The notes beneath the pieces were generated by a model. The model made no database searches. It saw only the letters and a program-made list of their open reading frames with translations, and was not told the origin of the DNA. A DNA stretch of 64,000 nt from Ignavibacteriota bacterium (GTDB lineage: Bacteria > Bacteroidota > Ignavibacteria > Tepidaquicellales > OLB5). This document shows positions 802 through 36,347 of this stretch, piece by piece. Numbering within the stretch: position 1 is the first letter of the stretch; every line of letters begins with the position of its first letter. Position numbers and translations under genes: made by a program. The stretch is taken from assembly GCA_003820375.1 (NCBI GenBank), contig RPQH01000001.1, forward strand, positions 36,874 through 100,873, read 5' to 3'.

Positions 802-805
802 AAAA

Positions 806-10166: not shown

Positions 10167-10179
10167 ATAAATTTCTCCT

Positions 10180-10752: not shown

Positions 10753-10754
10753 TC

Positions 10755-12152: not shown

Positions 12153-12156
12153 GATG

Positions 12157-15840: not shown

Positions 15841-15841
15841 T

Positions 15842-17799: not shown

Positions 17800-17881
17800 A
17801 GTACCCCTATTAACAGCTATATTTTAAAGGGGTTATAAGGGTATTTGCGAGCCTCGTTCTTTTTTACTGTCAAACATATGT

Positions 17882-17910
17882 AATTTAACCTGTTTTTTTA
17901 GTTTTGTCAA
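17882..17910 (-). promoter_or_regulatory. Putative leader promoter of array 1 (TTGACA-N17-TAAATT on the minus strand)
   Basis: Plus-strand tgtcaa at 17905-17910 and aattta at 17882-17887 with a 17-nt spacer. It lies ~80 nt upstream of the first repeat. The same architecture occurs beside array 4. Confidence 0.4.
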
Positions 17911-18373
17911 TACTTTTTAAGAGCTAAGTATATTAAAAATAAGGTGCCCCGAGGCATAAAGACTTACAAAAAAAGTTAAGTACCTTTATTTTTTAACACT
18001 TAGTCATAATTGGCTCCTTTTCTAAAATCTGGTTAGTAAACTTCATATCCTTTGTTTCCAGGTATCTCTATTTTTGCACCTAATCCTATCGCCTTATCAT
18101 AACAAGCATTGCAAATTGGGTAAATTCTAACTAAATCAGAATTCTTAGCAATCTTAACCAGACCTGAAATTATCGTTTTTAGTTTCTTTTTTACTAAACT
18201 TAATATTCCCTTTTATAGAAAATTGGATATAAATATAAAAAATACAAAGGTTTAACTTTAGTTAATCATTGGATATTACTTAATAATATATTAATTTTAT
18301 AAGAACTTAATCCTAATAATTTCAAAAATGACAGTATATTCTTATTAAGTAATTCCTAAATGTAATCAAAAAA

Positions 18374-21300
18374 ATGGAAAATAAATCAAAAAAGAAAATC
18401 TTAATATTTGATTATTATGAAAATATATTAAGATATTTAATGAAAAAATTAGGAGATATAAGGATACGATATGAGGTAATTTTTATAAAAATGAATAACG
18501 GAAAATCTGTATTAAAACAATTACAGGATCATGTACCCTCATTTGTTTTTTATCAGCCTTTTGATTTTTCTAGTATACTTGAACCCGATATGCAATTTCT
18601 TGAGAAATATATTCTTCCTTTTTTAAAAAATAAAAATTGTAATGTCTTATTTTACTATTATATTTATAATAAAAGTAATACGAGTGATATTGCGAATAAT
18701 GTTTATAATAAATTTCAATCTTTCATTCAGCAAAATGTTCATAAAAAAAACAATTCTAATATAAATTTTATTAATACGGCAGATTTCTACGTAAAGCCAA
18801 ATAAATCCAGCTCCAATTTAAAAACCGGGGAAAGTTATTTGGACTATCAACTTAAACGATTAGACTATCTCTATAAACCACTTAAAGAGAAGAATGATAA
18901 TGATAGACAAATAAATGATGAAGATTTGGTTGATGATATACACAATCCAATTAAAAATGATTATGCAGCTAATTTAGATAATGAATTACTTGATGAGTAT
19001 ACATCATTTATTTCAGATTTAATAACTGATTATATTTTACACTGTGATTATATAGATAATAAAGTAGAAGGATATTTCAATTTAGATAATTTAAAGTTTT
19101 TAAAATTTAAAAATCTTTATATTGATAAACTTAAAGACATACAAGTATTTAATGGTGATGAATATAATACTATAAAGTTATCTTTAGGGAAACTAACATT
19201 TTATGACCAAATGGGAAATCTATTGTTAGATATACCATATAAGAAATATTATAATAATTTAAATGCTTATGTAAAAGAACATAAATTATTAAAATATTTA
19301 TTTTCGGAAAATATAAATAGATATGAAAAAGGTAAAAATTATATATTTTATGAATTTTATTACTACAATGATGCAAATAAAATCACTTTAAAAATTAATA
19401 ATTGTTTTTATCGGATAAATTCTAAGACAAAAAATTTAGAAAATGCCGATGATATATTAAAAAAATGGCTGCGAATCTTATTTTCAGAAGTATATTACTT
19501 AAACTTCTATAACAAAGATCAAAATATATGGAATGAAATAAATATAAATGGAAATATAGTCAATAGCATTATTCAGCAAAGCAGTTCATTATATGGTGAA
19601 TCCCCATTTTATTTTGTTTTCTTTTTTGAAGAACTAGATATTGCCGGACAAAAAGGTACTGTAAACTATTGTTTATATAGTGATTCAGTACAAATTAATG
19701 CTCTACGTGGGAATCGTATTCCAATTAATGAAAATAATATCGAAGAATTTACAGATAGAATATATTCAGATATTCGTCCATTGATAATTTCAAGAGCTCA
19801 AGAATCGATATTCCCATTAATTAACAATCAAATCAGAAAATTAGCTGTTCAATCAGCAGTTTCATCAATCTTTGCTAGAAATTATTCTCACAACATTGGA
19901 GCTCACGTAGATAATAGAACTTATTATAATGATATAATTTTCAACTTAAATAATCTATATGGTGCAAAAGCAATAAATGATAACAGAAAACTAATTGATG
20001 TATGGATTCATTTAATGAAAGATTTAATGAAAAATTATTCAATTAAAAGGAATGAATTCCTTGCAGATTATCAGCACCCACCTAAAAATCTATTGCTCTA
20101 CGAAGATATTATACTTCCCTTTGTTGAAAATATGCTATTAATGAATAATATAGCATCAAGTGAAGATATAATGTATTTTAAAAATGGAAATTGCATTGAA
20201 AATAAGTTAAAAATAAAAGTAAATATAAACGGCAATGAGTTAAGTGCGCAATATCCTGATATGAGATGTATAGTAGATTGTGATGAATTGATAGAATATC
20301 CTGATCATTTTCCATATGTGTATTGTTATAAAGGGCTAAGTAATCCAAACAATTGCGAAATTGAAGATTTAACTAATATTTTAAAAACCAAAATCATACT
20401 GGGTAATGATATTGAAATAAGTATTACTAATGAACATGCTTTTTTCTCTATCTTAGAAAATATTATTAGAAACAGCTCAAAACATAATAAGAAAATATTA
20501 GAAGATGAATCAGAGTTACTAATCCAGATAAATGTTTATGATACAGATTTAGTAGATAATAAAAAGGATAATAATTTTTATCACGTAATTGTATATGATA
20601 ATATATCTGAAGCAAAATTATGTGATATATGGGAATTTAAAAGAACTATAGAAAGCTCAATAATTAATATTGAAACTGCCCAACTTGAACGAAAACAGCT
20701 TGGTATTAAAGATATGAAAATTAATGCTCATTTATTATGCTCCTCAGAAGAAATAAATGATGATATTTTAAAAAAATCTTTAGAAGTTGTTATTATAGAT
20801 AGATCAATCAAAGGTCCTGCAGAAATAATTTTTAATCCACTTCAATATCGAAATTATGATGAATTATTGAAAGATATAAAAGAACATTACTACGGAGATT
20901 TTGATATAGATAATTATAAATTTAGTTTTGGATACAAATTTAAACTACAGAAATCTAAAAAAATAATGTGGGTAGTTGGGAATGATTTAAAAATAGATGG
21001 AAAAGTAATAGACGAATTTCAGGAAAAAGGTGTTACCATTTTCTCCTATCAGGAAGATTTATCCAGTAACTTATCCAAAACAATAGCTTCGTATCAATTT
21101 ATTGTTTTCGAGAGAGAATATTTTAAGAATTTCAGCGATGAAGATTATATATCATTTGAAAGATGTTTAACTAAGCTGCCTTTCAGATTACTATTGAATA
21201 GTGAAGATGATGATTTTAATGAATATTTGAGTAAACTAATAAATTCAAGAAGAATACAACTGGTCAAAAATAAAATTCATTTTTTGGATTCTAACAATGA

Positions 21301-22132
21301 GCCTTATGATGTTTTTAGTATTTTAAAAGCATGTTGGATTAATTGGTTAGATAGATGGGATAATGGTAAAAGAATAAACTTAATCATCAGTGATAAAGAT
21401 AAGAGTAGTTATTTTAACCAGACTATCGGGAACGAGAAGTATAGTATTTTTCATGGAGATTATTCCAGCAAGGCTTTAAAACTAAATTATAATGAAAGAT
21501 ATGTAATATTTGACAGGCATGGTGATACACACTTTGATATTAAAAGTCAGTTGAAATGTTTCGAATTTGGTAATCTTTTTTATCAGACATATGAAAAAAA
21601 CAATGATGATTTTAATATTCTTAATCAATGTCAATTAAATGAGTTAAGTTATTATCAATTAATTGAAGCAGCATTGGTTAAAATTTTAATAGCTGATGAA
21701 AGATTATGTGCCTATATGAATGATAAACTTAATTCAATTAATACAAATTACAATATCATCAACGAGAACTATGAATTAAACTCACATGGGGCGGCTCTCA
21801 CTAATATTTTCTTTGTAAACTCATTAGAAAATAACATTATAAGCAAAACAAATGCTTCATATGCATGCTATATCAATAATGATAAAGTTACTTTTAATTT
21901 TTTAAATAAAGAAATCAAAACATATTTTGATTGTATTATAGTTCATAGAACATTTATTAATGAACATCTATTAAGAAATTTGAGAACAATAATTCCAAAT
22001 ATTATTATTACCTCCGGCGGGGGCTCAATTCAGAGAGATGAAAAGTATAAGTTTAAACCTTTAAGTCTTTTCCAGGGATTAACATCAAATCATTTCTCGA
22101 AAATAACATTAACAAAAAATGCTTTAACATAA
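18374..22132 (+). CDS. Giant (1252 aa) histidine-kinase-like GHKL ATPase protein with receiver-like flanks
   Basis: H-box-like AVSSIFARNYSHNIGAHV. N-box-like FFSILENIIRNSSKHNKK ~190 aa downstream. VIVYDNISEA and RKQLGIKDMKINAHLL at the G1/G2-box positions (degenerate). N-terminus KKILIFDYYENIL. C-terminus VKILIADERL...DCIIVHRTF...IIITSGGG...KFKPL resembles a (pseudo)receiver. Confidence 0.5.
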   Translation: MENKSKKKILIFDYYENILRYLMKKLGDIRIRYEVIFIKMNNGKSVLKQLQDHVPSFVFYQPFDFSSILEPDMQFLEKYILPFLKNKNCNVLFYYYIYNKSNTSDIANNVYNKFQSFIQQNVHKKNNSNINFINTADFYVKPNKSSSNLKTGESYLDYQLKRLDYLYKPLKEKNDNDRQINDEDLVDDIHNPIKNDYAANLDNELLDEYTSFISDLITDYILHCDYIDNKVEGYFNLDNLKFLKFKNLYIDKLKDIQVFNGDEYNTIKLSLGKLTFYDQMGNLLLDIPYKKYYNNLNAYVKEHKLLKYLFSENINRYEKGKNYIFYEFYYYNDANKITLKINNCFYRINSKTKNLENADDILKKWLRILFSEVYYLNFYNKDQNIWNEININGNIVNSIIQQSSSLYGESPFYFVFFFEELDIAGQKGTVNYCLYSDSVQINALRGNRIPINENNIEEFTDRIYSDIRPLIISRAQESIFPLINNQIRKLAVQSAVSSIFARNYSHNIGAHVDNRTYYNDIIFNLNNLYGAKAINDNRKLIDVWIHLMKDLMKNYSIKRNEFLADYQHPPKNLLLYEDIILPFVENMLLMNNIASSEDIMYFKNGNCIENKLKIKVNINGNELSAQYPDMRCIVDCDELIEYPDHFPYVYCYKGLSNPNNCEIEDLTNILKTKIILGNDIEISITNEHAFFSILENIIRNSSKHNKKILEDESELLIQINVYDTDLVDNKKDNNFYHVIVYDNISEAKLCDIWEFKRTIESSIINIETAQLERKQLGIKDMKINAHLLCSSEEINDDILKKSLEVVIIDRSIKGPAEIIFNPLQYRNYDELLKDIKEHYYGDFDIDNYKFSFGYKFKLQKSKKIMWVVGNDLKIDGKVIDEFQEKGVTIFSYQEDLSSNLSKTIASYQFIVFEREYFKNFSDEDYISFERCLTKLPFRLLLNSEDDDFNEYLSKLINSRRIQLVKNKIHFLDSNNEPYDVFSILKACWINWLDRWDNGKRINLIISDKDKSSYFNQTIGNEKYSIFHGDYSSKALKLNYNERYVIFDRHGDTHFDIKSQLKCFEFGNLFYQTYEKNNDDFNILNQCQLNELSYYQLIEAALVKILIADERLCAYMNDKLNSINTNYNIINENYELNSHGAALTNIFFVNSLENNIISKTNASYACYINNDKVTFNFLNKEIKTYFDCIIVHRTFINEHLLRNLRTIIPNIIITSGGGSIQRDEKYKFKPLSLFQGLTSNHFSKITLTKNALT

Positions 22133-22137
22133 TATAT

Positions 22138-22776
22138 ATGAGAAATATAATTTTCATTACAAGAGATTACGAAAATCAATACACTATTAAAGATGAATAT
22201 ACACACTTATGGAAAGCTGACGGTGAATCCAGTTTCTTTTCAATTGATTTAAACGATGATAAGATTTTAGTAATAAATGGACCAAAATTGTTTAAAACTT
22301 TGGATATTATGAAGAAAATTGAAACTTTATCTCACTATATTCCTAGGAATGAGGAAACAGGATTATTATATCATAGCCACACGCTTAATAATAGTCATTT
22401 AAATTTATCTTTGAAATTCTTAATGAAATTTGGTCATAGTGATGAATACTTTTATAATGGAATATATATACCTTTAGCTGAAAATAAAAACAATAAAGAA
22501 GTTGTTGTAAACTATTTTAATCAAATATGGGATATGTTTGACCCTGCATCTGAAATGGAATGTAAATTGAATGTACTATATAAATGTCTTGTTCCAGTGA
22601 AAGATACAAAGGAAATTGAGAGACTACCTGGCTGGAAAAAAATAAAAAATATTAAAATATCAAATAATGAAGAAGAAATATCAATAATTGATTACTTAAG
22701 AATCAATTTTACAAAAGATTCATTGGAATACGATGTTTTACTTACAAAACTTAGAGATATTGTTTTAAAGAATTAA
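22138..22776 (+). CDS. hypothetical protein (212 aa), 5 nt downstream of the kinase-like gene
   Basis: Tight operonic spacing. No convincing domain motif. Confidence 0.45.
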   Translation: MRNIIFITRDYENQYTIKDEYTHLWKADGESSFFSIDLNDDKILVINGPKLFKTLDIMKKIETLSHYIPRNEETGLLYHSHTLNNSHLNLSLKFLMKFGHSDEYFYNGIYIPLAENKNNKEVVVNYFNQIWDMFDPASEMECKLNVLYKCLVPVKDTKEIERLPGWKKIKNIKISNNEEEISIIDYLRINFTKDSLEYDVLLTKLRDIVLKN

Positions 22777-22900
22777 AATCTAACAAATGAGCTAAATTTA
22801 AAAAGTAATAAAATTGCTAGTTTTTGAACCCATTCGAAATTCATGAATAATAATATATATTAATAGAAAAGCTATTTTTAAATATTTAAATCAATCGAAA

Positions 22901-24889
22901 ATGAAAATATTAATAGTCGATGACAATGAAAATTTTGTGCGAAATGTTATTTATAAAATCAAAGAAACAGAATATTATAAAAATGCATCAAAGATATTTG
23001 ATGTAGATATTAATTATGAACATATTTATGTAAATACATTTTACGAGTTGAAGAACCGAATAACGTATGCAATTGAAAATGATAATACAATTATTCTAAT
23101 AAATGCGAATGTTATATTGAAAGATTATAGAAGACAGGATATGGCTGGAATTGAAATATTATATTATTTAAGGCTTGAACGAAGATTAAATTCTATTTTA
23201 ATATACTCTTTTGAGAGCATTAAAGATATAATTCGTAAATCCCCATACAATATTATTGCTTTAACAAAGTATACTTATCATTTAAGATTACCTATAAAAA
23301 CAGAAGAATTAAACAATTTATTCAATCAAATATCTAATGAACCTCAAATAAAATTATTTGAAGATTATAGACCATTTTTATTAATAGATACTATCAAACA
23401 AAAATTTGAAACACAAGATAAACATGAATTAGCCAATAAATTAGGTGCTTTAAATTGGGCAAATGCTTTTTTTGAAACTAAAGACATAGTAGAATTAGAA
23501 AGCATGAAAATACTGTTAAAATCAAAGCAGAAAAATATCCTTGAGAAAGATTTTCACAAATATATGTTACTCCTTAGTTTAACAAACAGTGAAAATCAAT
23601 ACATGTTAAATTATATAGGGGAAAGAGATAAGATTAGCAGTTTGTTTGAAAGCTTCAGTAAAGAGAGTAAGAGAAACTTTAAAATTTTATTTGTTGATGA
23701 CCATTGCGAAGACGGGGGATGGAGTTGCTTGTTAGAAAAAGTATTTGGAAAAAGCTGTGATTTAACATCTGTACCATCAGCTTTTGAAGCATACGAAAAA
23801 ATGGGATTAAAGGAAAATAAAAAACTTTTAATTGATTATGATCTCGTAATTCTTGACTTGAATTTGGATAAAGACCCATCGTCAACACCAATAAAACAAA
23901 GATCGGGCTATAAAGTATTAGAGTTTATTAGAGATTGTGATAAGAGTATACCGGTAATAATATTTACAGCATCTGAAAAAGCGAATAACATTTTGGAATT
24001 AGAGAATATTGGTATAAACGGATATTTATGCAAAACAATTTATGGTGACAAAACCCTTGATGAAGTTGAAAAACTTTATAATATTATTAATATAACCATT
24101 GAAAATATCTACATAAGAAATATTTGGAAATGTTTTATTGACTTTGAAAATAAAACGCGTTTCGTAAATAATAATTGGGAAGGTAACGAACTTGCATTTA
24201 ACTCGACTGTTAATATGTTATTCAAGTTATTTGAACTTTTGCTTTTGAAAACAAGGAATTTTAGAAAATCTGATAAAATATTTGACCAATTCATTATAAA
24301 CGCATTTATGATATTTGATAATATATTTTTAAAAGAATTATATGATATAGATGTTAGTACCATAGGGAGAAAAAAAGAAAAATTGTTTACAAAAGACGAT
24401 AGATATGGACCTTTCGGTAATTATATAAATTATATAAATGTTATTAGAAACAATATTGTACATAACAATTATGAGGCAAATATATATGATATGTTATTAG
24501 ATGCAGCTGTTTTAATGTATATACTTACATTAAATCCGGAATATTATTTTCGTGTTTTTCTTAATTATAAAGATGGACAAAATAGCTTGGATGGACTATA
24601 TAATAGCTCCCTCATTAAATCAATAAACCTATATCATAAGGAAAACGAAAAAGTAAAATTAAATACATCTTTAAGCAATGATAAGAGACGTATGTACATT
24701 AACTTCTTATGCGGATACCGAAATTCTATATACATTGATGTGAAAAATGAAAATTGGAAATATAAATGGATATTTGAGACAGAGTTATTTAGGGCAAATA
24801 ACCCTCTTAAATATATATGGCATGATTATATTATTAAAAAAATAACAAATTGCGAAATTGTGTTAGAACCTGTAAGTATTATGGAATAG
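22901..24889 (+). CDS. Tandem receiver protein (pseudo-REC + canonical REC) with a C-terminal HEPN-like domain
   Basis: REC1: MKILIVDDNENF, but the acceptor position reads IILINANV. REC2: FKILFVDDH, YDLVILDLNLD (acceptor Asp), IPVIIFTASEK (Thr), GINGYLCKT (Lys). The C-terminal helical region has INVIRNNIVHNNYE, an Rx4H HEPN-type motif. Confidence 0.6.
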   Translation: MKILIVDDNENFVRNVIYKIKETEYYKNASKIFDVDINYEHIYVNTFYELKNRITYAIENDNTIILINANVILKDYRRQDMAGIEILYYLRLERRLNSILIYSFESIKDIIRKSPYNIIALTKYTYHLRLPIKTEELNNLFNQISNEPQIKLFEDYRPFLLIDTIKQKFETQDKHELANKLGALNWANAFFETKDIVELESMKILLKSKQKNILEKDFHKYMLLLSLTNSENQYMLNYIGERDKISSLFESFSKESKRNFKILFVDDHCEDGGWSCLLEKVFGKSCDLTSVPSAFEAYEKMGLKENKKLLIDYDLVILDLNLDKDPSSTPIKQRSGYKVLEFIRDCDKSIPVIIFTASEKANNILELENIGINGYLCKTIYGDKTLDEVEKLYNIINITIENIYIRNIWKCFIDFENKTRFVNNNWEGNELAFNSTVNMLFKLFELLLLKTRNFRKSDKIFDQFIINAFMIFDNIFLKELYDIDVSTIGRKKEKLFTKDDRYGPFGNYINYINVIRNNIVHNNYEANIYDMLLDAAVLMYILTLNPEYYFRVFLNYKDGQNSLDGLYNSSLIKSINLYHKENEKVKLNTSLSNDKRRMYINFLCGYRNSIYIDVKNENWKYKWIFETELFRANNPLKYIWHDYIIKKITNCEIVLEPVSIME

Positions 24890-25100
24890 GCTATTTATTA
24901 TTTAAAAATATAGTATTTTTCCGGTCTTTAGCTGCATATCTTATTAGGCACTTCTATTATAACAACAGATGTTTGTTATCTACTTCAAAAATGACATTAT
25001 CAGTATAAAATAATTGTTAAGCTCAATTAAGTTGTTAAATTGCTTAAGATACATTCATTAAAAGGAAGGATGGGTAGGATTTTTAAAACATCTACAATAA

Positions 25101-27295
25101 ATTTCAATCTGCATTCGTCTCATTCATTTTAAAGCCAACATCATTTTCACAAACTAGCGGCTCCACTAACAAGTTTCAATCGGCATTCGCCTCATTCATG
25201 TAAAAAGGCAGATAAGACCACCGAAATCACAACAAAGAGAAGAGTTTCAATCGGCTATCGCCTCATTCATGTAAAAAGTTCAGCTTCAAAGATTGCTATC
25301 ACTTCCAACAAGGAGTTTCAATCGGCCTAAGCCTCATTCATATTTTAACTAAAAATAAACCCGAAAACGTAAAGGTTCATACTTACGGTTTCAATCGGCT
25401 TTCGCCTCATTCATGTAAAAAGCGAAAAGTCATCGTATCAAAGGGGTCAACCAAAGAGTTTCAATCGGCTTTCGCCTCATTCATGTAAAAAGACTTTGCA
25501 ATGACAAATGTTCAGGGAAGCTTCTATAAAGGTTTCAATCGGCTTTCGCCTCATTCATGTAAAAAGTCACCATATTCGGTGAATTCTGGGGAAATCGTAA
25601 ATTGAGTTTCAATCGGCTTTCGCCTCATTCATGTAAAAAGCCTTCAAGACTTCATAAACGATAACACCACAGTTTCAATCGGCTTTCGCCTCATTCATGT
25701 AAAAAGAAAGAATGCTGTTATCTCAGTAATAAATCCTGAGTTTCAATCGGCTTTCGCCTCATTCATGTAAAAAGACAAAACGTGTAATTGCCAATAAGTC
25801 CAAATCCAGGTTTCAATCGGCTTTCGCCTCATTCATGTAAAAAGGATGACCCATGAAGAAAAGATGAAAGAAATTGAGTTTCAATCGGCTTTCGCCTCAT
25901 TCATGTAAAAAGATATATTCTGAAAAGGTACAACCTATCATTAAAGTAGAGTTTCAATCGGCTTTCGCCTCATTCATGTAAAAAGGTTATTTCGCAATCA
26001 ACATATATTTTAATTAAGCGTTTCAATCGGCTTTCGCCTCATTCATGTAAAAAGTATCATTACTTATAATTGAACCAACTCCAAATTTTCTTAGGTTTCA
26101 ATCGGCTATCGCCTCATTCATGTAAAAAGAAATAGATACTGCTTATGTGAAAACCGGATACGTTTCAATCGGCTTTCGCCTCATTCATGTAAAAAGAATG
26201 AAGCTCAGCCACCTATTGTGGTTGAAAAAGAGTTTCAATCGGCTTTCGCCTCATTCATGTAAAAAGAACAGTTTCAACAGCCCGTGACTTATAACTACGG
26301 AGTTTCAATCGGCTTTCGCCTCATTCATGTAAAAAGTCATTTGGACAAGGCTGGACCACAGAGTTCAATTGCGGTACGTTTCAATCGGCTTTCGCCTCAT
26401 TCATGTAAAAAGGGGAGAGCAAAAGAATCGCAATCTCACTCGAGCGTTTCAATCGGCTTTCGCCTCATTCATGTAAAAAGGGGACAGAACCTGAAAAGGT
26501 TGATTTCATTCACTGGAGTTTCAATCGGCTATCGCCTCATTCATGTAAAAAGGGTAGTAAAACTGTCAACGCAGTTTGCCACAAAGGGGCAGTTTCAATC
26601 GGCTTTCGCCTCATTCATGTAAAAAGTCTTACTGATTACGCTACAAAAACGTATGTTGATGAGTTTCAATCGGCTTTCGCCTCATTCATGTAAAAAGGAG
26701 AAAAGGACAAGATTGAACGGAAAATTCGGATAATGAGTTTCAATCGGCTTTCGCCTCATTCATGTAAAAAGCTTTGAACTGGTATAACTTCAAATACATT
26801 TCACAAGAGTTTCAATCGGCCTTAGCCTCATTCATGTAAAAAGATATCAATTCCGAAACCCAGAGAAACCGTTGAACAGGGGGTTTCAATCGGCCTTAGC
26901 CTCATTCATGTAAAAAGCTGCACATAAAGGAGTATTTAATGAAATCAATTACGTTTCAATCGGCTTTCGCCTCATTCATGTAAAAAGTCTGATTTCGAAT
27001 ACGGCATGGTTACAATACACAGCGTTTCAATCGGCTTTCGCCTCATTCATGTAAAAAGATACAGAGATTGCGAAACATTCGGTTCGTACGCGGAGTTTCA
27101 ATCGGCCTTAGCCTCATGCATGTTTTAACTACGACTTTGTCGTAAACTTAAGCACCGATGAATACCGAGTTTCAATCGGCTTTCGCCTCATTCATGTTTT
27201 AACAACAGACCTGGTGCAAGCGGTAAGATAAATGCGTTTCAATCGGCTTTTCCTTAGATTCCGTCTTCAGCGGGAAGCCTCATTCAGTTTTCTGA
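25101..27295 (-). CRISPR. CRISPR array 2: 31 repeats, directly abutting the 3' end of cas6-RT
   Basis: Plus-strand consensus is GTTTCAATCGGCTTTCGCCTCATTCATGTAAAAAG (35 nt), with spacers ~32-39 nt. The first unit at 25101 is degenerate, and a further probable relic repeat lies at 25031-25064. The last three units (27087, 27159, 27236) are variants. The unit at 27236-27295 carries a 25-nt loop insertion and ends 8 nt from the cas6-RT stop. Confidence 0.95.
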
Positions 27296-27302
27296 TAATA
27301 AA

Positions 27303-28832
27303 TTAATGTAAATTTCTGTTTTTATCAATGATATATAAATCTTCACCATCCTTTATCAGCTTGCAGTTACCTGGCAGCATTTCATCAAGCCGGTCAAGGT
27401 AAAGATTTATGAGCATAGGATTTAGCATTCTATTATATGGAATACCTTCATATGATGTGACCATATTTCCTTCTATACAAACCGGCTGTGTTATCCATAC
27501 CCTTATCAGGTCACTTACCGGATCACCACCGAATAATGTTTCTATTCGCTCGTATAATACATCCTTATTAATATAGCTGTAGAAAGAGTCTATATCAATT
27601 TTATTATATTCGTAACCATTTTTTTCTGCTTCATCAAGCATCTTTAATGCTCCCTCTTTCGAAAACCCATTCCTGTAAAAAAATGAGCTTTCTCCTATAT
27701 ACTTATTTATCACGGGTTCAGCAATTTGTTTTACTGCCAGCTGAAGTGTTCTTTCTTCAAGATTAAATTCAGTATGAATGTTAATTCCATCATGTTCTTC
27801 AGTTATAGTACCGGTAAACGGTTTAGCTTCATATTTGCCTGTAATTACTTCATTGATTAAATTATCTAAATTCTCATTAATTTTTGAATTAAATTTCTTT
27901 ACTTTTAGTTTATCGCTAATTGTTAAGCTATTATCCGATGCCAATACTTTATAGGCATTCAAAACATTTTCTTTTTTGACTGCTTTTGCAAGAAATGTTT
28001 CATAAGGAGATAACTCGCTAACATTGTACCCGGGAATATTTGTAACTGAATTTTTTCCAAATCCAAAGGATGTATTATTTCCATTATTAATAAACTGTCC
28101 GAACCATAAAAGCAATTTTAAGTCTGCTGAAAGCTCAGCAGTAAATTTTACTTTGCCTGAAACTCCTCCAAGTGTTTTGGATGTATATGGCATATCAAGC
28201 CACATAAGGTTAATATAATTAACTGCACAGTGAAGAAATTCTAAAGAAGGGTCACATTCATCAACTGAATTGCCGCATAATATTGATAAGCGTTTTACTC
28301 TATAATATAATAGTTTTAAAAATTGTCTTATATCAAAATATTCCCGGTCAAAATATTTATGCCCGGGTACAGGATATTCTCTTACCATTCTTAATGGTGA
28401 CCTAAGCCATAGCTCATATTCTTCTTCACCTCCATCTGTAAAATCCGGTATAATTTCCGTTTTAATTTCAGTTATATCTTCTAATGTAAATATTCCTTCT
28501 ATGCTGTTCTCTTTCGGTATATAAGAAGAAATTGATTTTAGCTTGCTTTCAAGATGGTCAATAAAATAATCACCTGCATTTATTGCGGTAATTCCGAAGT
28601 TATAGCAATCTCCTGATTGGTAAGATGTTCTTCCTGATTCTACCGCATTAATGATAATATCCTCACCAAGCTTGTTAACGCCTCTTTTCATGGTTTTACA
28701 AATAAGGTCATAGAGCTTTGAGCCATGGAAGAAAAGAAAATTTACATCATTGTTAAATTTAATTGTGACTTTAAATCTTTTATATGAAATAGATTTAATT
28801 AGTTCTTTAACAGGAAAATTGAAGTGATTCAT
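27303..28832 (-). CDS. cas6: Cas6 fused to a truncated/degenerate reverse-transcriptase domain (no Cas1 part)
   Basis: The N-terminal ~265 aa end in the Cas6 G-rich loop FINNGNNTSFGFGKNS. The C-terminal part has RT motifs in order: LEERTLQLAVKQIAEPV (1), FFYRNGFSKEGALKML (2), NKIDIDSFYSYINKDVL (3/A), GIPYNRMLNPMLINLYLDRLD (4/B). It then reads LIKDGEDLYII where YxDD (5/C) is expected, and the protein stops 8 aa later. Confidence 0.7.
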   Translation of the reverse strand: MNHFNFPVKELIKSISYKRFKVTIKFNNDVNFLFFHGSKLYDLICKTMKRGVNKLGEDIIINAVESGRTSYQSGDCYNFGITAINAGDYFIDHLESKLKSISSYIPKENSIEGIFTLEDITEIKTEIIPDFTDGGEEEYELWLRSPLRMVREYPVPGHKYFDREYFDIRQFLKLLYYRVKRLSILCGNSVDECDPSLEFLHCAVNYINLMWLDMPYTSKTLGGVSGKVKFTAELSADLKLLLWFGQFINNGNNTSFGFGKNSVTNIPGYNVSELSPYETFLAKAVKKENVLNAYKVLASDNSLTISDKLKVKKFNSKINENLDNLINEVITGKYEAKPFTGTITEEHDGINIHTEFNLEERTLQLAVKQIAEPVINKYIGESSFFYRNGFSKEGALKMLDEAEKNGYEYNKIDIDSFYSYINKDVLYERIETLFGGDPVSDLIRVWITQPVCIEGNMVTSYEGIPYNRMLNPMLINLYLDRLDEMLPGNCKLIKDGEDLYIIDKNRNLH

Positions 28833-29033
28833 TTTGACAGTTATTGATTTTGAAATAATAACTTTGCTGGTTCAGATATGTTGCAGCTAAAAATTTCCTT
28901 CAAAAGCAGAAACGAAAAAGAAATTAGTTCAAGCAACTTCACAAATATAATCAAAGAAGATAAAAGTTTGTAACCGTTTTATTTTTCAATAATAATAAAA
29001 CCACAGATGAGAGGAAAAAGGGAGTATATAATT

Positions 29034-29182
29034 ATCGGTTTACGCTTACCTAAATTTAGAATTGTCGATTGTCAATTGCGAATTAAGAATTAATAAATAA
29101 TCAGCCGTTGCATAAGAATAAATAGAAAAACATAAACACACCATATCACACACCCCTTCTTCGGAGGGGATGGGGGAGGCTG
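29034..29182 (-). promoter_or_regulatory. Type-1 inter-array leader-like element, copy a (relic repeat + AATTNNN heptads + GC hairpin)
   Basis: The relic repeat is atcggtttacgc at 29034. Six heptads span 29053-29094. The conserved block aagaataaatagaaaaa..acaccatatcacacacccc is present. The hairpin CCCCTT-cttcg-GAGGGG lies at 29153-29169. It is homologous to 30011-30146. Confidence 0.5.
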
Positions 29183-29773
29183 CTCCTAATCGGCCTTAGC
29201 CTCATTCATATTTTAACATTATGAACGCTGGTTTTGCCAAAGTTTATGAGGAGTTTCAATCGGCTTTCGCCTCATTCATGTAAAAAGTCCAATACGGAGT
29301 ATCTGAATTAGCTCAAGAGGTTTCAATCGGCTTTCGCCTCATTCATGTAAAAAGTCCAATACGGAGTATCTGAATTAGCTCAAGAGGTTTCAATCGGCTT
29401 TCGCCTCATTCATGTAAAAAGAAAACACCAAGTTGAATAACAAACCCACATTACTGAGTTTCAATCGGCTTTCGCCTCATTCATGTAAAAAGACCTTCCA
29501 TGAAGATTATGGTTATATTCTCAGGAGTTTCAATCGGCTTTCGCCTCATTCATGTAAAAAGAATTATTGGACTTTTGTTGTTTATAGCAATTCGTTTCAA
29601 TCGGCTTTCGCCTCATTCATATTTTAACGCGGAAAATACGATGAGCATCCTACAGGCAATGAGGGAGTTTCAATCGGCCTTAGCCTCATTCATATCTTAA
29701 CGACCTTGTCGCAGGTATCACAGTTTCAGGATGGCAGGAGTTTCAATCGGCCTTAGCCTCATTTTATACAAAT
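29183..29773 (-). CRISPR. CRISPR array 3a: 9 repeats (mixed repeat families), includes a tandemly duplicated spacer
   Basis: Repeat starts: 29183 (5' end degenerate), 29253, 29320, 29387, 29458, 29527, 29594, 29667, 29739. The last diverges after ..cctcatt. Confidence 0.9.
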
Positions 29774-29841
29774 ATAATAAATTGAAAAACAACTTTACAT
29801 CACAGTAATCGTTTTCCCGCTAAAAGCGGGATCTTCGCTTT
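29774..29841 (-). promoter_or_regulatory. Type-2 inter-array leader-like element, copy a (AT-rich block + CCCGC hairpin)
   Basis: Sequence ..aatataataaattgaaaaacaactttacatcacagtaatcgttttCCCGCTaaaAGCGGGatcttcg.. Hairpin at 29816-29830. Homologous to 31403-31469. Confidence 0.5.
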
Positions 29842-30010
29842 GCTTCGACAATCGGCTTTCGCCTCATTCATGTAAAAGTCACCCATCAATTGCTTTCTAC
29901 ACCTTCAGGAAATCAGTTTCAATCGGCTTTCGCCTCATTCATGTAAAAAGCGGGCTGCTCTGTGGCAAAGATTCAATGTGGTCGCCGTTTCAATCGGTTT
30001 TCGCCTCATT
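29842..30010 (-). CRISPR. CRISPR array 3b: 3 repeats
   Basis: Repeats at 29842 (degenerate, gcttcGACaatcgg), 29916 and 29987. The last diverges after ..cctcatt. Confidence 0.85.
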
Positions 30011-30146
30011 TTCTCAATTGCGAATTTCGAATTGTGAATCTCGAATTGAGTATAAATAAAATAACGAGTCGGAGAAAAAGAATAAATAGAAAAATATAAA
30101 TACACCATATCACACACCCCTCCTTCGGAGGGGAAGGGGGAGGCTG
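30011..30146 (-). promoter_or_regulatory. Type-1 inter-array leader-like element, copy b
   Basis: The five heptads are aattgcg|aatttcg|aattgtg|aatctcg|aattgag at 30016-30050. The conserved block is present. The hairpin CCCCTC-cttcg-GAGGGG lies at 30117-30133. Confidence 0.5.
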
Positions 30147-31402
30147 TTCCTAATCGGCCTTAGCCTCATTCATGTAAAAAGTGCTGGCTGTTTCGATATA
30201 GCTAGTAATAATAGTGTTTCAATCGGCTTTCGCCTCATTCATGTAAAAAGAATGAGCAGTGACCAGGGGAATACCTTCTTTTCGGTGTTTCAATCGGCTT
30301 TCGCCTCATTAATGGTCAGATCTTAGTTACAAGTTTTACAGGTTTCAATCGGCTTTCGCCTCATTCATGTAAAAAGTTTGAGCACACAGGCACAGGAACT
30401 TCAAAATCTGAGCGTTTCAATCGACTTTCGCCTCATTCATGTAAAAAGCATCATCAGCCATCATATTCGTTAAATGACTTTTTCACAGAGTTTCAATCGG
30501 CTTTAGCCTCATTCATGTAAAAGGGTTTACCCTTAAACGCCAATGTCAATGTGTCAGAGTTTCAATCGGCTTTCGCCTCATTCATATTTTAACATGGTTA
30601 CGGGTGCGACAGCGGATAACTTTGCGTTTCAATCGGCCTTAGCCTCATTCATATTTTAACTGACGATTCATCCTTCATCAAGGATGACTTCTGTTTCAAT
30701 CGGCCTTTCCTTAGATCCCGTCTTCAGCGGGAAGCCTCATTCATATTTTAACGTGGAAGAAAAACAGACACCACCTCCAGTTACTTTGTTTCAATCGGCC
30801 TTAGCCTCATTCATATTTTAACTGATTCAATAAACTTTATGTCTCTTGGCAAACCGACTATTGGAGTTTCAATCGGCCTTAGCCTCATTCATATTTTAAT
30901 TAATGTTCCAATTCCAGTTTGCTTCGATATTAATGAGTTTCAATCGGCTTTCGCCTCATTCATGTAAAAAGAAGAAATTGCTAAAAAGTTGGACCTGGCC
31001 CGGTGTTTCAATCGGCTTTCGCCTCATTCATGTAAAAAGTTTGACAAGAAGTTTGCCAAAGGTACTGAGATAGATAAGTTTCAATCGGCTTTCGCCTCAT
31101 TCATGTTTTAACTGAATATGTAGTGATTACCAATACTGCCACCGGCGCAGTTTCAATCGGAGTTAGCCTCATTCATGTTTTAACGCAAAGAGACAGCCTG
31201 TGGTGGATATTTGATTCAAAGAGGTTTCAATCGGCCTTAACCTCATTCATATTTTAACTTTGGGCCGAAGTTGTAGGGTTACCATAGGATCAATGTTTCA
31301 ATCAGCCTTAGCCTCATTCATATTTTAACATAAACTTTGACACACGTAAGCCAAGCGAAAAGCAGATGTTTCAATCGGCCTTAGCCTCAATCTATGCAAA
31401 TA
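30147..31402 (-). CRISPR. CRISPR array 3c: 18 repeats (both repeat families, chimeras, one loop-insertion repeat, one truncated repeat)
   Basis: Repeat starts: 30147, 30216, 30287 (truncated after cctcatt), 30342, 30414, 30490, 30559, 30636, 30703 (60-nt insertion variant), 30788, 30866, 30937, 31005, 31078, 31150, 31224, 31295, 31368. Confidence 0.9.
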
Positions 31403-31507
31403 TAACAAATTGAAAAACAATTTTACATCACAGTAATCATTTTCCCGCCAAGGGCGGGATCTCTGCTTCGCTACGACAATCGGCTTTCGCCTCATTCAAT
31501 CAAAAAT
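31403..31507 (-). repeat. Type-2 leader-like element copy b plus an orphan degenerate repeat (31470-31507)
   Basis: Sequence aatataacaaattgaaaaacaattttacatcacagtaatcattttCCCGCCaagGGCGGGatctctg, then gctacGACaatcggctttcgcctcattcaat. Hairpin at 31444-31458. Confidence 0.6.
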
Positions 31508-31540
31508 ATGGAAATGTTTTATTAATTAAAATTATAAAAT

Positions 31541-32470
31541 CTATTTTATTAAAGCATCTGCCAAATTATAAGGAATTTTGCATGCCGGTATTCTTTTCCC
31601 TTTATTAAAACGTATTAATGGTCCTAACTCATATTCTGTTTTACTAATCCTTTTGTAAGATTTAGTTAAGACTGAATTAATTACATATAGCAGTTCAAGA
31701 TTACTTGAGCTAATTGCACCCATCCATTTAAGTGTCTCGCTTTTATCACGTGATACAATAATTACACAGTTACACTCATTCAATATTCTTTGGTTTTTCT
31801 TATCTATTTTGCCGCCGCAGTCAATAAATAAAATCTTCTTATTTTCAGAAGCAGTCTTTATACCTAAAACCGTTTCAGAGACAAATCCTTCGTCAAAAGC
31901 AGTTTTATATCTAAGAGTAGTGCCTAACTGTTCCGGTACATCATGGTACCAGTCACCTTCACCATCTGGACAAGCCCTTATTATATAGAAATATTTCTGA
32001 AAATTCTTCCACCCCCACCTTTTACTAAGCTTCAGAGAAAGAAGGTTAAGAAAAACGGATTTGCCGCTATGAGGCGGGCCCACAAAGGCAATTATTTTAT
32101 TTTTTCTTTTCCCGGGCTTTTTTTTTATCTTGTTTGTCGACTCATGAATTCCAAAATAATGTTTAATATCATCCAATGGAATTACATCTCCTGCTTGAGG
32201 GGATTTTGAATCATGCGATTGTACTACTATTGCTCCTTTACGCGGGTCAAACGTTGCAACCCACTTTGATATATGAAGAAGATGAACTAAATATGAAAAC
32301 AGCCAAACGGGAGATTTACCGGAAATAATTACACCTTTTGTATAATCAATTCCCTTTGGTAATTGGAGATTTCTTATATCCTCCGGGTCTAATAAGCCGT
32401 TCATTGTAATATCCAGAACCTGGAAATCTTTATTACCTTTAATTACTTTAAGTAAAATTTTTTTATTCAA
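31541..32470 (-). CDS. csx3: Csx3 (Crn3-type cA4 ring-nuclease fold) fused to a P-loop ATPase (Csx3-AAA)
   Basis: The N-terminal GVIISGKSPVWLFSYLVHLLHISKWVATFDPRKGAIVVQSHD closely parallels, from memory, the Csx3 core GVVISGRGPIWL...YDPRLGAVVVQSH. It is followed by IIAFVGPPHSGKSVF (Walker A) and ILFIDCGG (Walker B-like). Confidence 0.8.
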   Translation of the reverse strand: MNKKILLKVIKGNKDFQVLDITMNGLLDPEDIRNLQLPKGIDYTKGVIISGKSPVWLFSYLVHLLHISKWVATFDPRKGAIVVQSHDSKSPQAGDVIPLDDIKHYFGIHESTNKIKKKPGKRKNKIIAFVGPPHSGKSVFLNLLSLKLSKRWGWKNFQKYFYIIRACPDGEGDWYHDVPEQLGTTLRYKTAFDEGFVSETVLGIKTASENKKILFIDCGGKIDKKNQRILNECNCVIIVSRDKSETLKWMGAISSSNLELLYVINSVLTKSYKRISKTEYELGPLIRFNKGKRIPACKIPYNLADALIK

Positions 32471-33238
32471 TTATTCTTTACTTCTTCCTGTTAGAGTTTT
32501 TTCCAAAATAGAAGTACCCCCGCTTGTATATTCGAGTAAATTAATATTATACTTTTTAAAATACTCTGTCCAGTAAGTTTTTAATGCTGAATACTGGTCA
32601 GGGGGGAAATCCTGTATTACACCGGTATAAACAAACACTTTAGTTTTGGGAATCTCCATTGCTTCAGTTTTTTCTAAGAATCTTTCTGCATCCTTTGTAT
32701 TTCTAAGAGAGGTAAAATTGTACTTATCGGATTCCTGCACCATATCTGAAAAAAGAATAATGAGGTTTTCACAATCTTCGTTTTTATCATCAAGATATCT
32801 CCGGGTTTCTTTTAATGCTCCAATAATATCAGTTTTTTTACTAAGCTTTTCTCTGGAACTCAAGGCAGCATAATATAAGCTGTCAAAAGTCTTTATGAGG
32901 CTGTCTTTGCTTTCGTCAAATCTCCTTTTTTTAATTCTATCTTTTTGAGCAGGGGAATCCATATCTTTTTCATAACTATTTAAAGCAAAATCAATATGGT
33001 AAATTTCTGTAGCATTTGTCTGGCTGCCGTAATCGATCGGAAGAACAATCATTCTGTCAGTAAAACTCATTGATTTTACCACGTTGTTTTTAATAATATC
33101 TTTATATGATTCAATTACATTTTGAGGGATGCTTTTAGAAAAATCTACGAGGCAAATTATATTATATGTTTTTTCTTTTTTTCCGCATGAAAAGAAAAGA
33201 AACATTATTGAAATCAAAAACAATACTATTTTCTTCAT
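32471..33238 (-). CDS. vWA-domain lipoprotein
   Basis: Signal peptide with lipobox LFFSC. MIDAS-like CLVDFSKSI (DxSxS). IILFSDMVQES resembles the vWA hhhhTDG strand. The stop abuts the csx3-AAA start codon. Confidence 0.55.
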   Translation of the reverse strand: MKKIVLFLISIMFLFFSCGKKEKTYNIICLVDFSKSIPQNVIESYKDIIKNNVVKSMSFTDRMIVLPIDYGSQTNATEIYHIDFALNSYEKDMDSPAQKDRIKKRRFDESKDSLIKTFDSLYYAALSSREKLSKKTDIIGALKETRRYLDDKNEDCENLIILFSDMVQESDKYNFTSLRNTKDAERFLEKTEAMEIPKTKVFVYTGVIQDFPPDQYSALKTYWTEYFKKYNINLLEYTSGGTSILEKTLTGRSKE

Positions 33239-33265
33239 AATGATATAGGTTGTGCTGTTATTAAA

Positions 33266-34486
33266 TTATGCAGTTTGCAATTCTTTTTCCGGTATTTTTT
33301 CATCTGATTTATTTCCTGATTTTAAATCTTTTATTTCTTCTACGAGCTGTATTATAATTTCCTCATTTTTTCTTATTTCTTCCATTTTCTCTTTAATTGC
33401 ATCTGCATTTAAAATTCCATATTTAAACAATTTTTCATCAACACTTTGGATGGAATCATATTTGATATATACTGAATCATTTATAGAGAAACCCGGTTTT
33501 AATCGTTCTTTTTTATATTCTTCATGGAGCTTGTCTTTATTCTGGTCACACTCTAATTTGTATATTCTTCTGACATCAAGTACAAGCTGCCAGAATTTCT
33601 CGATAGTCTTTTTAATCTCATTATTAAATGTAGAAAGAAGGTTTTTTCTATTTTCATCATGCTCATGTATTTTAGTGACTGTTTCTCTCCACTTTTTCCA
33701 GAGCTTATACTTGAGTTTATTTGTAAATTGATTTCTTTTTACAAGTGCCATAAATATTCCTAAAGCAAAAGTAATTGCCATTGTGAGAATTGAAGCCCAA
33801 AACCCAATTCTTTCATTACTTTGTATCTCTTCTGCTGTATATCCTGTAGTATCGGTCTGCTCAAGAAAGTATATCCTGACAAGTCCTGCTGTTATTATAA
33901 TTAAAAAACTGACAGCAGTTAAAACATATCCAAGATTTCTTGTATCTTTGTAGTTTTTAAGTATGTGTTCAGATATTTTATTTTCTTCTTTCTTTTGCTG
34001 CATTTCACGGTATTTAAAATGAGTATCGAAAGAGTAATTAAGAACAACCATTACAACAGTTGCAAGGAATAACGCTAAAACAATTTTTAAAGCCTCTAAT
34101 TGGGGAGGAACAAAAACGGAAGCAGTCAAGTAATACAATCCGATTTCAGCAATTATAAACAAAGTTACTATAAAATAATAGAAGCGGTTTAAGCTTTTTA
34201 CTTTCTGAATTTCATATTCAGTAAATTCATAAGTATTTTTTTTATCCTGTTTGGTATTTTCCTCAATTACTTCAGTGCTTTTTAAAATTCCTTTTAGTTT
34301 ATTATATCTTTTTTGCATTCTTGAATATACATTCTGGAGCTTTTTCATATAAGCATCAGAATAATGAAGAATTTCATTAATAGCGTAAGTTTTCTGTTGT
34401 TTAACGGCAAGATCAACTTTGTTGGGGTCATTTTTTTGTCTTTTAAGTCGGAGCCTTCCGAAGAAATTTAATATCCAGTTTATCAT
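33266..34486 (-). CDS. 4-TM (two TM hairpins) membrane protein with long coiled-coil/helical cytoplasmic regions
   Basis: Four hydrophobic helices: FYYFIVTLFIIAEIGLYYL, IVLALFLATVVMVVL, LGYVLTAVSFLIIITAGLV and FWASILTMAITFALGIFMALV. They are flanked by K/E-rich helical segments. First gene of a 3-gene minus-strand operon. Confidence 0.55.
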   Translation of the reverse strand: MINWILNFFGRLRLKRQKNDPNKVDLAVKQQKTYAINEILHYSDAYMKKLQNVYSRMQKRYNKLKGILKSTEVIEENTKQDKKNTYEFTEYEIQKVKSLNRFYYFIVTLFIIAEIGLYYLTASVFVPPQLEALKIVLALFLATVVMVVLNYSFDTHFKYREMQQKKEENKISEHILKNYKDTRNLGYVLTAVSFLIIITAGLVRIYFLEQTDTTGYTAEEIQSNERIGFWASILTMAITFALGIFMALVKRNQFTNKLKYKLWKKWRETVTKIHEHDENRKNLLSTFNNEIKKTIEKFWQLVLDVRRIYKLECDQNKDKLHEEYKKERLKPGFSINDSVYIKYDSIQSVDEKLFKYGILNADAIKEKMEEIRKNEEIIIQLVEEIKDLKSGNKSDEKIPEKELQTA

Positions 34487-34775
34487 GGTTAATTAAAATT
34501 AGTTCTTGGAATATATGTGTGAATTTAATTATTAATCTATAAGGAATGTCAGTAAACGTACAGTCGTAATGATATAGCATCTATTTCTGAATAAGCCATA
34601 TGAACAATAACCTATGAACCAGAATAGAAGCAGTCAGGAAGTGAGAAAATTTGCTTCTTCTAAAGACAGGAAAAACAGTTAATTAAATATACATATTGGT
34701 AAAAAAATAAACAATGAAGATTAATGAGGCAGGATAATTTAAATTAATAGAAGAAGATGGATATGATCAAAGATA

Positions 34776-36062
34776 GTTTTCAATCGGCTTTCGCCTCATT
34801 CATGTAAAAAGTACAGTAGATTATCATATATAACGGTATGACGTTTCAATCGGCTTTTCTTTAGATCCCGTTTTTAGCGGGACGCCTCATTCATGTAAAA
34901 AGCACTTATAATGATATGCTGACAACTGTGAACTTTTAGTTTCAATCGGCTTTCGCCTCATTCATGTAAAAAGGAGATATGCCCTGGAGTAACACCGAGC
35001 TTACCGAGTTTCAATCGGCTTTCGCCTCATTCATTTAAAAAGTTATCAAGTAGAAATAGTTTCTATACTTGGCAAAGAAGAGTTTCAATCGGCTTTCGCC
35101 TCATTCATATAAAAAGGCAGTCGCAAAGCCAGGAGATGAAGCAGGAGCAGAAGAATGAGTTTCAATCGGCTTTCGCCTCAATCATGTAAAAAGACACAAA
35201 GACAATAAATTCAGGATAAAAGACCCCAAGTTTCAATCGGCTTTTCCTTAGATCCCGTCTTTAGCGGGACACCTCATTCATGTAAAAAGGAAGAAAATAT
35301 TGAACCAAGCTCTTCATTGCCTGAGTTTCAATCGGCTTTCGCCTCATTCATTTAAAAAGGACAAACTTCGTCCAGTTCGACATTCCAGAGGGAGTTTCAA
35401 TCGGCTTTCGCCTCATTCATGTAAAAAGTTCGTGTATGAAAAAACATTTAACAGGCCGGTCAACATGTTTCAATCGGCTTTCGCCTCATTCATGTAAAAA
35501 GTATAGGCGTATATTATACGAGCACACTAGACGGAGTTTCAATCGGCTTTCGCCTCATTCATGTAAAAAGGAAGAACGAAGCTCAGCCACCTATTGTGAT
35601 TGAGAGTTTCAATCGGCTTTCGCCTCATTCATGTAAAAAGAGACGAGTTCCACCATTCCGTTACATATAAATGGTTTCAATCGGCTTTCGCCTCATTCAT
35701 GTAAAAAGGTAAATAGCGAATCTACAACTAGCGCAAAGAGGTTTCAATCGGCTTTCGCCTCATTCATGTAAAAAGATGTTCCATTCAGTGAGAGATGATT
35801 TGCGCGAAATTGTTTCAATCGGCTTTCGCCTCATTCATGTAAAAAGTAACTGCAATCCATCCAAATATGATTTGCAAGAGTTTCAATCGGCTTTCGCCTC
35901 ATTCATGTAAAAAGTTATTTGTAATCGTGAATTCGTATTCTCAAAAAATCAGCGGTTTCAATCGGCTTTCGCCTCATTCATGTAAAAAGGAAGTCTTGGT
36001 TCTGACTCAGATTGGAATCTTAAGGGAGTTTCAATCGGCTTTCGCCTCATTCATGTAAAAAG
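34776..36062 (-). CRISPR. CRISPR array 4: 18 repeats; units nearest 36062 are identical, variants cluster at the low-coordinate end
   Basis: Repeat starts: 34776, 34843 (insertion variant), 34939, 35008, 35082, 35159, 35230 (insertion variant), 35325, 35394, 35467, 35536, 35606, 35674, 35741, 35812, 35880, 35955, 36028. Consensus is GTTTCAATCGGCTTTCGCCTCATTCATGTAAAAAG. Confidence 0.95.
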
Positions 36063-36131
36063 AGCGGGGTTGTAAGTATATTATATTTAGATAGTTTATA
36101 TACCCATTTTCTGACGGTGTACTTTTCAGGG

Positions 36132-36271: not shown

Positions 36272-36347
36272 AGCCTGTTTTACAAAAAACTGTCAGAAAA
36301 GCTACCTTTACTATTTAATATATAGCTATATAATTGTAAAAATATCT

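Follow-up and report, generated by a model that had tools for sequence, protein, structure and literature searches.

The gene considered here is a truncated cas6-reverse transcriptase (RT) fusion gene, which we call the stub, in a stretch of 64,000 nt from an Ignavibacteriota bacterium (assembly GCA_003820375.1, contig RPQH01000001.1, positions 36,874 to 100,873). This whole 64-kb stretch is referred to as the window, and all positions are counted from its first nucleotide. An earlier note, made from the sequence alone, had described a 509-residue protein in which a Cas6 domain is followed by an RT-like half that breaks off at the catalytic motif, next to a CRISPR repeat. The gene and its two parts are as follows.

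27303-28832, minus strand: cas6-RT stub gene, 509 aa, ATG start
28023-28832, minus strand: Cas6 domain of the stub, about residues 1-270
27315-27989, minus strand: RT fingers and palm through motif C, about residues 282-506

The Cas6 assignment proved sound. The protein has a RAMP/ferredoxin-like fold, the G-rich loop GNNTSFGFGKN that the earlier note had pointed out and the conserved histidine (H36); Pfam PF10040 (Cas6) matches residues 145-260 above its cut-off (E 7e-8, 33.5 bits against 25), and the PADLOC Cas6 models and NCBIfam cas_cas6 match likewise. It is also the only Cas6 match in the window among the 48 longest, largely non-overlapping open reading frames (ORFs) of the 52 that reach at least 100 residues. 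The C-terminal half is indeed RT-like: residues 287-487 correspond to positions 1-203 of the 353 in NCBIfam TIGR04416 (group II intron RT; E 9e-22), the PADLOC RT model is matched over positions 3-219 of 263 and its RT-Cas1 model Cas1_IIIb over 21-233 of 617. What the stub holds is the N-terminal part (the region of motifs 1-5) of a group-II-intron-type RT. Alignment with full-length relatives places the end of the ORF about 10 residues past motif C and supports the earlier reading of DGEDLYII at the YxDD site; KDGEDLYII stands where RYxDDFVxL is expected, and the stretch that reads RYxDDFVxLCKS in the relatives is KDGEDLYIIDKN in the stub protein. Motifs 6-7 and the thumb, which belong to a complete RT (motifs 1-7 plus thumb), are missing as had been stated, and a C-terminal Cas1 integrase domain is found neither in the ORF nor in any of the six frames of the window. 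An AlphaFold2 model of the stub (pLDDT 83.7, pTM 0.85) has the two strands of the motif-C hairpin as its last elements; its best fold match in Foldseek is the Cas6-RT lobe of 7KFT (TMq 0.73), and it is also similar to the Cas6 structures 6DD5, 5YI6 and 3PKM.

We considered whether the gene encodes a group II intron RT/maturase and rejected this: with 77.7 bits, TIGR04416 stays below its cut-off of 300, the match spans only positions 1-203 of the model, and no Rfam intron is present at 17000-36500. Annotations of such proteins should be read with care, as the database record names the stub simply 'Cas6', and a similar stub (P0007) is labelled 'retron-type RT'.

An exhaustive HMMER search with the stub protein over 1.8 billion representative proteins returned 1968 homologues. 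The top matches are almost all Cas6-RT-Cas1 fusions of about 930 residues, and query residues ~8-506 fall onto their first ~505, so that the Cas6 part is included in the alignment from residue ~8 onwards. The closest homologue (P0006, 932 aa) is 43% identical to the stub and other relatives are 33-34% identical; the best sequence match in the PDB is 7KFT, from Thiomicrospira (E 5e-20). This end-to-end alignment with residues 1-506 of the fusions agrees with the earlier proposal that the protein is a truncated derivative of Cas6-RT-Cas1 and not a native short protein. The canonical gene order is seen in relatives from Ignavibacteria and Melioribacter (loci L001, L003, L004, L005, L040, L044 and L081). 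There, effector genes precede cas6-RT-cas1 (~935 aa) and cas2 (91 aa); next come a leader that is a few hundred nt long and a same-strand array with repeats ending GATTGAGAC.

The two halves of the stub have fared differently, in keeping with the earlier suggestion of a conserved Cas6 and a dead RT. From 96 full-length homologues we took the 63 alignment columns with at least 80% conservation (19 in Cas6, 44 in RT). The stub keeps 18 of the 19 Cas6 columns (family mean 17.4) versus 25 of the 44 RT columns, for which the full-length family has a mean of 40.8, a standard deviation of 2.6 and a minimum of 31; the RT count is thus below that of all 96 relatives, and a second alignment gave the same outcome. 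The changed RT positions include four arginines (R351, R365, R392 and R494), S471, the FD pair in motif A and the leading Asp of YxDD. PQG has become PYN (Q466 and G467 lost) and YADD has become DGED, so that catalytic and deoxynucleoside triphosphate (dNTP)-binding residues of the RT (PQG, YxDD, conserved Arg/Lys) are replaced. Identity to the nearest relative is 49% for the Cas6 part and 32% for the RT part, which gives an RT-to-Cas6 ratio of 0.65; across 371 pairs of full-length proteins with comparable Cas6 divergence this ratio has a mean of 1.32 (standard deviation 0.17, minimum 0.74). Judged by these identities, the RT remnant is evolving faster than Cas6. Because of the losses at the active site and in the conserved columns, together with the missing motifs 6-7 and thumb, RT activity of the stub is very unlikely. 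In the Thiomicrospira complex, mutations at the active sites of RT and Cas1 were without effect on Cas6 processing (PMC8102632) and, therefore, a dead RT need not impair Cas6.

Immediately past the stop codon of the stub lies a CRISPR array.

27296-27302, minus strand: junction of 7 nt (TTTATTA) between the stub stop codon and the first A1 repeat
27236-27295, minus strand: first A1 repeat, a 60-nt 'long' variant with a 25-nt hairpin inserted in the repeat loop and a divergent 5' end
25101-27295, minus strand: CRISPR array A1, 31 repeats, oriented as the stub gene, without a leader

The earlier note had placed the stop codon (27303-27305) and the repeat correctly, the gap between them being 7 nt and not 8. 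It had also described the repeat as insertion-bearing, which is right, and as 3'-divergent, which applies to the plus strand only: the transcribed strand diverges at its 5' end and has an intact 3' GATTGAAAC. Nor is the insertion peculiar to this junction: the arrays contain four copies of the 60-nt variant (27236-27295, 30693-30752, 34843-34902 and 35230-35289; family D9). At the low-coordinate end of A1 the repeats are degenerate. The gap between the stop codon and A1 contains no terminator-like site, and a scan for promoters and terminators gave counts no higher than in shuffled sequence. Given that an array on the same strand follows with no room for a terminator, the suggested co-transcription of A1 with the stub gene is plausible.

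Two other explanations of the stub were considered. The gene could be split or frameshifted, the missing portion of RT-Cas1 being encoded close by in a different frame or ORF and the enzyme remaining active. Such a layout does occur at a related locus (L038), where a frameshift about 23 codons past motif C is followed by the rest of the gene and cas2. In the window, however, the array begins directly past the stub, the PQG and YADD motifs are lost, and tblastn with P0006 and the C-terminal halves of the 96 full-length relatives found no remnant of the RT C-terminus or of Cas1 in the 64 kb; we therefore reject a split gene and attach practically no probability to it. The same searches bear out the earlier statement that the window has no cas1, as does a Pfam scan without a Cas1 match in the 48 ORFs described above. 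The second explanation is a chimeric join at CRISPR repeats in a metagenome-assembled genome (MAG) built from short reads. CRISPR arrays are prone to misassembly, the window has six of them with near-identical repeats, and the databases list a single exact copy of the stub protein, which comes from these MAG data. Against this, unique sequence lies on the gene side of the junction and the junction repeat is itself a unique variant; assembly cannot account for the degeneration of the RT active site (changes at 19 of 44 conserved positions); and equivalent stubs are found in independent assemblies, among others on contigs of 84 kb, 211 kb and 1.5 Mb. An assembly artefact is, in our estimation, highly improbable.

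The remainder of the adaptation module has left a second stump, which lies downstream of A1.

18374-24889, plus strand: three-gene cassette (1252 aa, 212 aa and 662 aa)
18036-18200, minus strand: cas2 remnant, corresponding to Cas2 residues ~37-92, with the natural stop codon and without the start codon and first ~36 codons
17801-18035, minus strand: stop codon of the cas2 remnant (18033-18035) and leader of array A0 (233 nt, 17801-18033)
17486-17800, minus strand: array A0, four repeats and a degenerate terminal repeat (GCCGATTGTCGAAAC...)
7911-17110, minus strand: type III-D effector operon (Card1-like CARF nuclease, Cas10 of 497 aa, RAMPs, Csx19, TIGR03986 RAMP)

No cas2 had been visible to the earlier note. 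A hidden Markov model (HMM) of Cas2 built from the relatives matches 18036-18212 on the minus strand (E 2.5e-14), and this 5'-truncated remnant is 49% identical to the Cas2 encoded beside P0006 and, by tblastn, 38-42% identical to the Cas2 of other relatives; the Pfam Cas2 model matches it over positions 40-73 of 74 with an E of 0.007, which is below the cut-off. The cas2 remnant and the stub give the same rank order of relatives, with the P0006 locus first. The leader that follows includes a block, ACTTAACTTTTT, common to the post-cas2 region of the closest relative (L081) and to the region upstream of array A4, and after the leader come A0 and the effector operon. Thus an intact cas2 next to the fusion gene is replaced by a start-less fragment 9.1 kb downstream. 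What is missing amounts to ~425 codons of the fusion (the whole of Cas1 and, from the RT, motifs 6-7 and the thumb) and the first ~36 codons of cas2, about 1.4 kb in total.

A single deletion removing the rest of the RT, cas1, cas2 and the leader, as had been proposed, does not account for this arrangement, in which the 3' half of cas2, the 233-nt leader and A0 survive. Between the two stumps, which are 9.1 kb apart, lie A1 and the three plus-strand genes, and at least two events are therefore required: either a replacement, or a duplication followed by deletions. The three-gene cassette may be an inserted accessory cassette in a type III locus. Its genes have no Pfam, NCBIfam or PADLOC match except a receiver domain in the third (662 aa), and its GC content is 24.7%, versus 29-32% in neighbouring genes. 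A 13-nt direct repeat, TTCAAAAATGACA, flanks it (18321-18333 and 24984-24996), although a repeat of this length is marginal in such AT-rich DNA.

We consider it probable that the stub is the N-terminal relic of a cas6-RT-cas1 gene in a decayed type III-D adaptation module, with Cas6 kept as the maturase of CRISPR RNA (crRNA). In this scenario the 509-residue protein would still be a Cas6 endoribonuclease that supplies crRNAs to the type III-D effector. The pre-crRNA would be cut 8 nt before the 3' end of each repeat, leaving a ATTGAAAC 5' tag, and the stub protein would be expected to process the transcripts of all six arrays; transcription that continues from the stub gene is the probable source of A1 expression. 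The arrays would be frozen, acquiring no new spacers, unless another Cas1-Cas2 sits elsewhere in the genome. Because Cas6 is encoded only within the fusion gene, selection for interference would keep the 5' part of that gene open after adaptation had been lost. The locus would then illustrate the fate of a three-domain fusion (maturase, RT and integrase) when only one activity is needed: Cas6 is kept, the RT decays and Cas1-Cas2 vanish.

There is precedent for this kind of truncation among the relatives. We identified at least eight other truncated derivatives that lie inside contigs; those that stop after Cas6 are 261-276 aa long, and those that stop around motifs B-C are 481-539 aa long.

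P0021 (L006), 511 aa: on a 1.5-Mb Melioribacteraceae contig; degenerate repeat ~35 nt past the stop; no cas1 or cas2 remnant
P0007, 529 aa: on a 22.9-kb contig after a type III operon; then a 3.9-kb gene-free stretch
P0061 (L082), 525 aa: preceded by a Cmr operon; followed by a gene, an array, a 66-aa remnant of the Cas1 C-terminus and another array
P0064 (L083), 499 aa: contig-internal; no cas1 downstream up to the contig end
P0056 (L084), 539 aa: followed after ~250 nt by an array
P0031 (L107), 481 aa: followed by a 33-repeat array
P0147 (L106), 261 aa, Cas6 only: followed by a 44-repeat array
P0067 (L104), 276 aa, Cas6 only: followed by a Cas2-containing ORF

These derivatives adjoin a type III operon, an array or both, and no cas1 was found downstream of them, the DNA around P0007 not being among the sequences searched; five loci (L006, L082, L084, L106 and L107) have stubs beside arrays without cas1. 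At L082 (6001-10900) the array between the 525-aa stub and the Cas1 remnant reproduces the interrupted layout of the window. A different outcome is seen at L020 (10001-12331), where fusion residues ~505-780 have been removed by an internal deletion.

The earlier note had reasoned that widespread homologues of the same length with a conserved C-terminus would make this a genuine short family. Homologues of similar length do exist. Six stubs were tested (P0021, P0007, P0061, P0064, P0056 and the window protein), and they have six different full-length nearest relatives and C-termini that are not conserved, which means convergent truncation and not a monophyletic short family. They retain 15-19 of the 19 Cas6 columns and 24-39 of the 44 RT columns, and all have a degenerate motif B, motif C or both; the window stub is among the two most degenerate in RT (25/44, against 24/44 in P0056) and has the lowest RT-to-Cas6 identity ratio. 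Truncated forms are a minority: of 80 loci from species-representative genomes, most of them Cas6-fused, a single one has a clean stub, another an internal deletion and a third a frameshift near motif C, and none of 12 complete metagenome relatives, found with Cas6-based patterns, is truncated. These unbiased samples are too small to claim a mutational hot spot after motif C, a possibility we had considered, and the stubs chosen for verification were biased towards lengths near 500-540 aa.

An alternative raised earlier is that the RT stub has been selected for a non-catalytic role, as a pseudo-enzyme scaffold that stabilizes Cas6 or aids RNA binding. Several observations are in line with this idea: (i) seven contig-internal stubs end at residues 481-539, around or just past motifs B-C, and in six of these the nearest relatives all differ; (ii) the window stub has lost about half of the expected RT identity and yet has no stop or frameshift in ~230 codons; (iii) among the 19 conserved RT positions at which it differs, 10 have conservative substitutions, and it retains core residues; (iv) the AlphaFold2 model is compact and confident and ends exactly past the motif-C hairpin; and (v) in 7KFT the Cas6 domain closely abuts the RT. 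On the other hand, the same family includes Cas6-only derivatives beside arrays (P0147 and P0067), so an RT stub is not universally needed, and the length bias just mentioned has to be set against the shared end point, as other short matches end at many positions. We regard a non-catalytic role as possible but rather doubtful. A broader version, which we find a little more doubtful still, is that fusion genes losing adaptation erode repeatedly to a few stable end points (~270 or ~480-540 aa) and that Cas6-pseudoRT would be a selected, functional maturase in which the fingers and palm of the dead RT provide a scaffold, or a platform for RNA binding, in crRNA processing. As to how the 3' parts are lost, the array between two stumps in both the window and L082 might point to array-mediated recombination as the usual route; this might occur by unequal crossing-over between flanking arrays or by spacer-protospacer recombination after uptake of a self-derived spacer. 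A search for self-targeting spacers, which would be a clue to the latter, gave chance-level matches only.

Returning to the reading of the stub as a relic with a functional Cas6, four points weigh against it. First, the rearrangement history can be told in two ways, as one operon that was interrupted and partly replaced or as two tandem units each partly deleted; the tandem units could have arisen by unequal crossing-over between the many same-sense arrays. Second, the evidence for Cas6 function is sequence conservation. Third, our evidence covers 64 kb of a 115-kb contig, and an intact cas6 or cas1-cas2 may be present elsewhere in the MAG. Fourth, the first A1 repeats are variants (the long form and a GTTAAAA form) and the processing of the first units is, therefore, uncertain.

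The arrays other than A0 and A1 are upstream of the stub gene.

29253-31400, minus strand: arrays A2, A2b and A3, with the same repeat and orientation, units segmentally duplicated
34777-36063, minus strand: array A4, 19 repeats, with a leader-like region at 36064-36347

Together the six arrays have ~80 repeats, whose 3' end GATTGAAAC is invariant on the minus strand. Since the repeats end in this way on the strand of the stub, the relatives have same-strand arrays with repeats ending GATTGAGAC and the array termini agree, we take the arrays and the stub gene to be co-oriented. Transcription from the plus strand was considered on account of the gene-adjacent variant repeats and of a 115-nt duplicated block that precedes A2 and A3 on that strand. 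It was ruled out by the relatives' same-strand arrays, by the array termini on the minus strand, where each array ends in a truncated repeat and then a GC-rich hairpin, and by the leader-like regions at the high-coordinate ends of A0 and A4. The repeat has a 3-bp hairpin (GGC/GCC stem) 9 nt from its 3' end, which, like the invariant 3' end, is indirectly in line with the proposed cleavage site. Rfam matched neither CRISPR-DR nor any other family in 17000-36500.

Some further features of the repeats and spacers may be recorded here. Across all arrays (17557-36063) there are two repeat classes, CTTTTTACAT... and GTTAAAATAT..., that differ only in the 5' 10 nt of the transcribed strand; the hairpin loop is GAAA or TAAG, and both classes are interspersed in single arrays. 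In the long repeats, the GGC/GCC stem-loop of a normal repeat has received a 25-nt hairpin (TCCCGC-loop-GCGGGA) within its loop, and a hairpin motif resembling this insert is also found past the truncated terminal repeats near 29830-29870 and 31440-31480; the insert may have its origin in a small palindromic element or in a hairpin of a terminator that repeats have captured. Two segmental duplications (29095-29209 with 30059-30173, 115 nt, 90%; 29734-29877 with 31362-31505, 144 nt, 88%) show that A2 and A3 are duplicated units, flanks included, and that reshuffling of the locus has taken place repeatedly. In A2 one spacer is tandemly duplicated with 100% identity (29288-29319 and 29355-29386), and a near-identical spacer (25 of 26 nt) is common to A1 (26197-26231) and A4 (35571-35605).

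The assignment of the effector operon to type III-D is based on TIGR03984 Csx19 (E 3e-37), the TIGR03986 RAMP (E 1e-106), a Cas10 palm2 domain and several RAMPs, with six arrays in the window. The 497-aa Cas10 (14347-15840, minus strand) matches only the second palm domain of Cas10 models; both the first palm domain and the HD domain may be absent from this short protein. Between arrays, at 31541-34486 on the minus strand, lie a Csx3-AAA fusion (309 aa) and then two genes without a family match (255 aa and 406 aa), and two tandem tyrosine-recombinase (phage integrase) genes stand directly beside the leader side of A4 (36348-39024, minus strand). On the other side of the window the effector operon is flanked by plus-strand genes (253-7163) that encode an HNH protein, an ArdC-like zincin, a CARF-sigma54 AAA+ regulator (Cas_NE0113 and Sigma54_activ) and an 863-aa HerA/TraG-like ATPase (PADLOC mad8); this region looks like a defence or mobile island.

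Compared with characterized Cas6-RT-Cas1 fusions (Thiomicrospira 7KFT/7KFU and Marinomonas mediterranea MMB-1), the stub is colinear over residues 1-506 and has the same setting, namely a type III effector operon and same-strand arrays with repeats ending ATTGA(A/G)AC. Unlike those fusions, it has no RT motifs 6-7, thumb, RT-Cas1 linker helix or Cas1 domain, its RT catalytic and dNTP-binding residues are replaced, and the cas2 of the window is a start-less 3' fragment 9 kb away. The stub also resembles stand-alone Cas6 proteins of types I and III in its PF10040 and cas_cas6 matches, conserved His and G-rich loop, and in the small hairpin of its repeat, located 9 nt from the 3' end; in contrast to these proteins it bears an inactive RT appendage of ~235 aa, and its descent is from the fused Cas6 lineage. 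Independent natural truncations of this kind map the removable parts of the Cas6-RT lobe, which is useful for designing a minimal Cas6 or RT-Cas1 recorders. A combination of Cas6 and RT without Cas1 was recorded in passing in a 2017 survey of CRISPR-associated RTs (PMC5541045), in a footnote to Table 1 that offers no analysis of it; the RT of the window is, in addition, truncated past motif C and degenerate, and the remnants of its partners have been mapped. The stub is, then, not a new kind of system or a new defence mechanism, but an instance of a Cas6-RT truncation that is recurrent in nature and barely noted in the literature.

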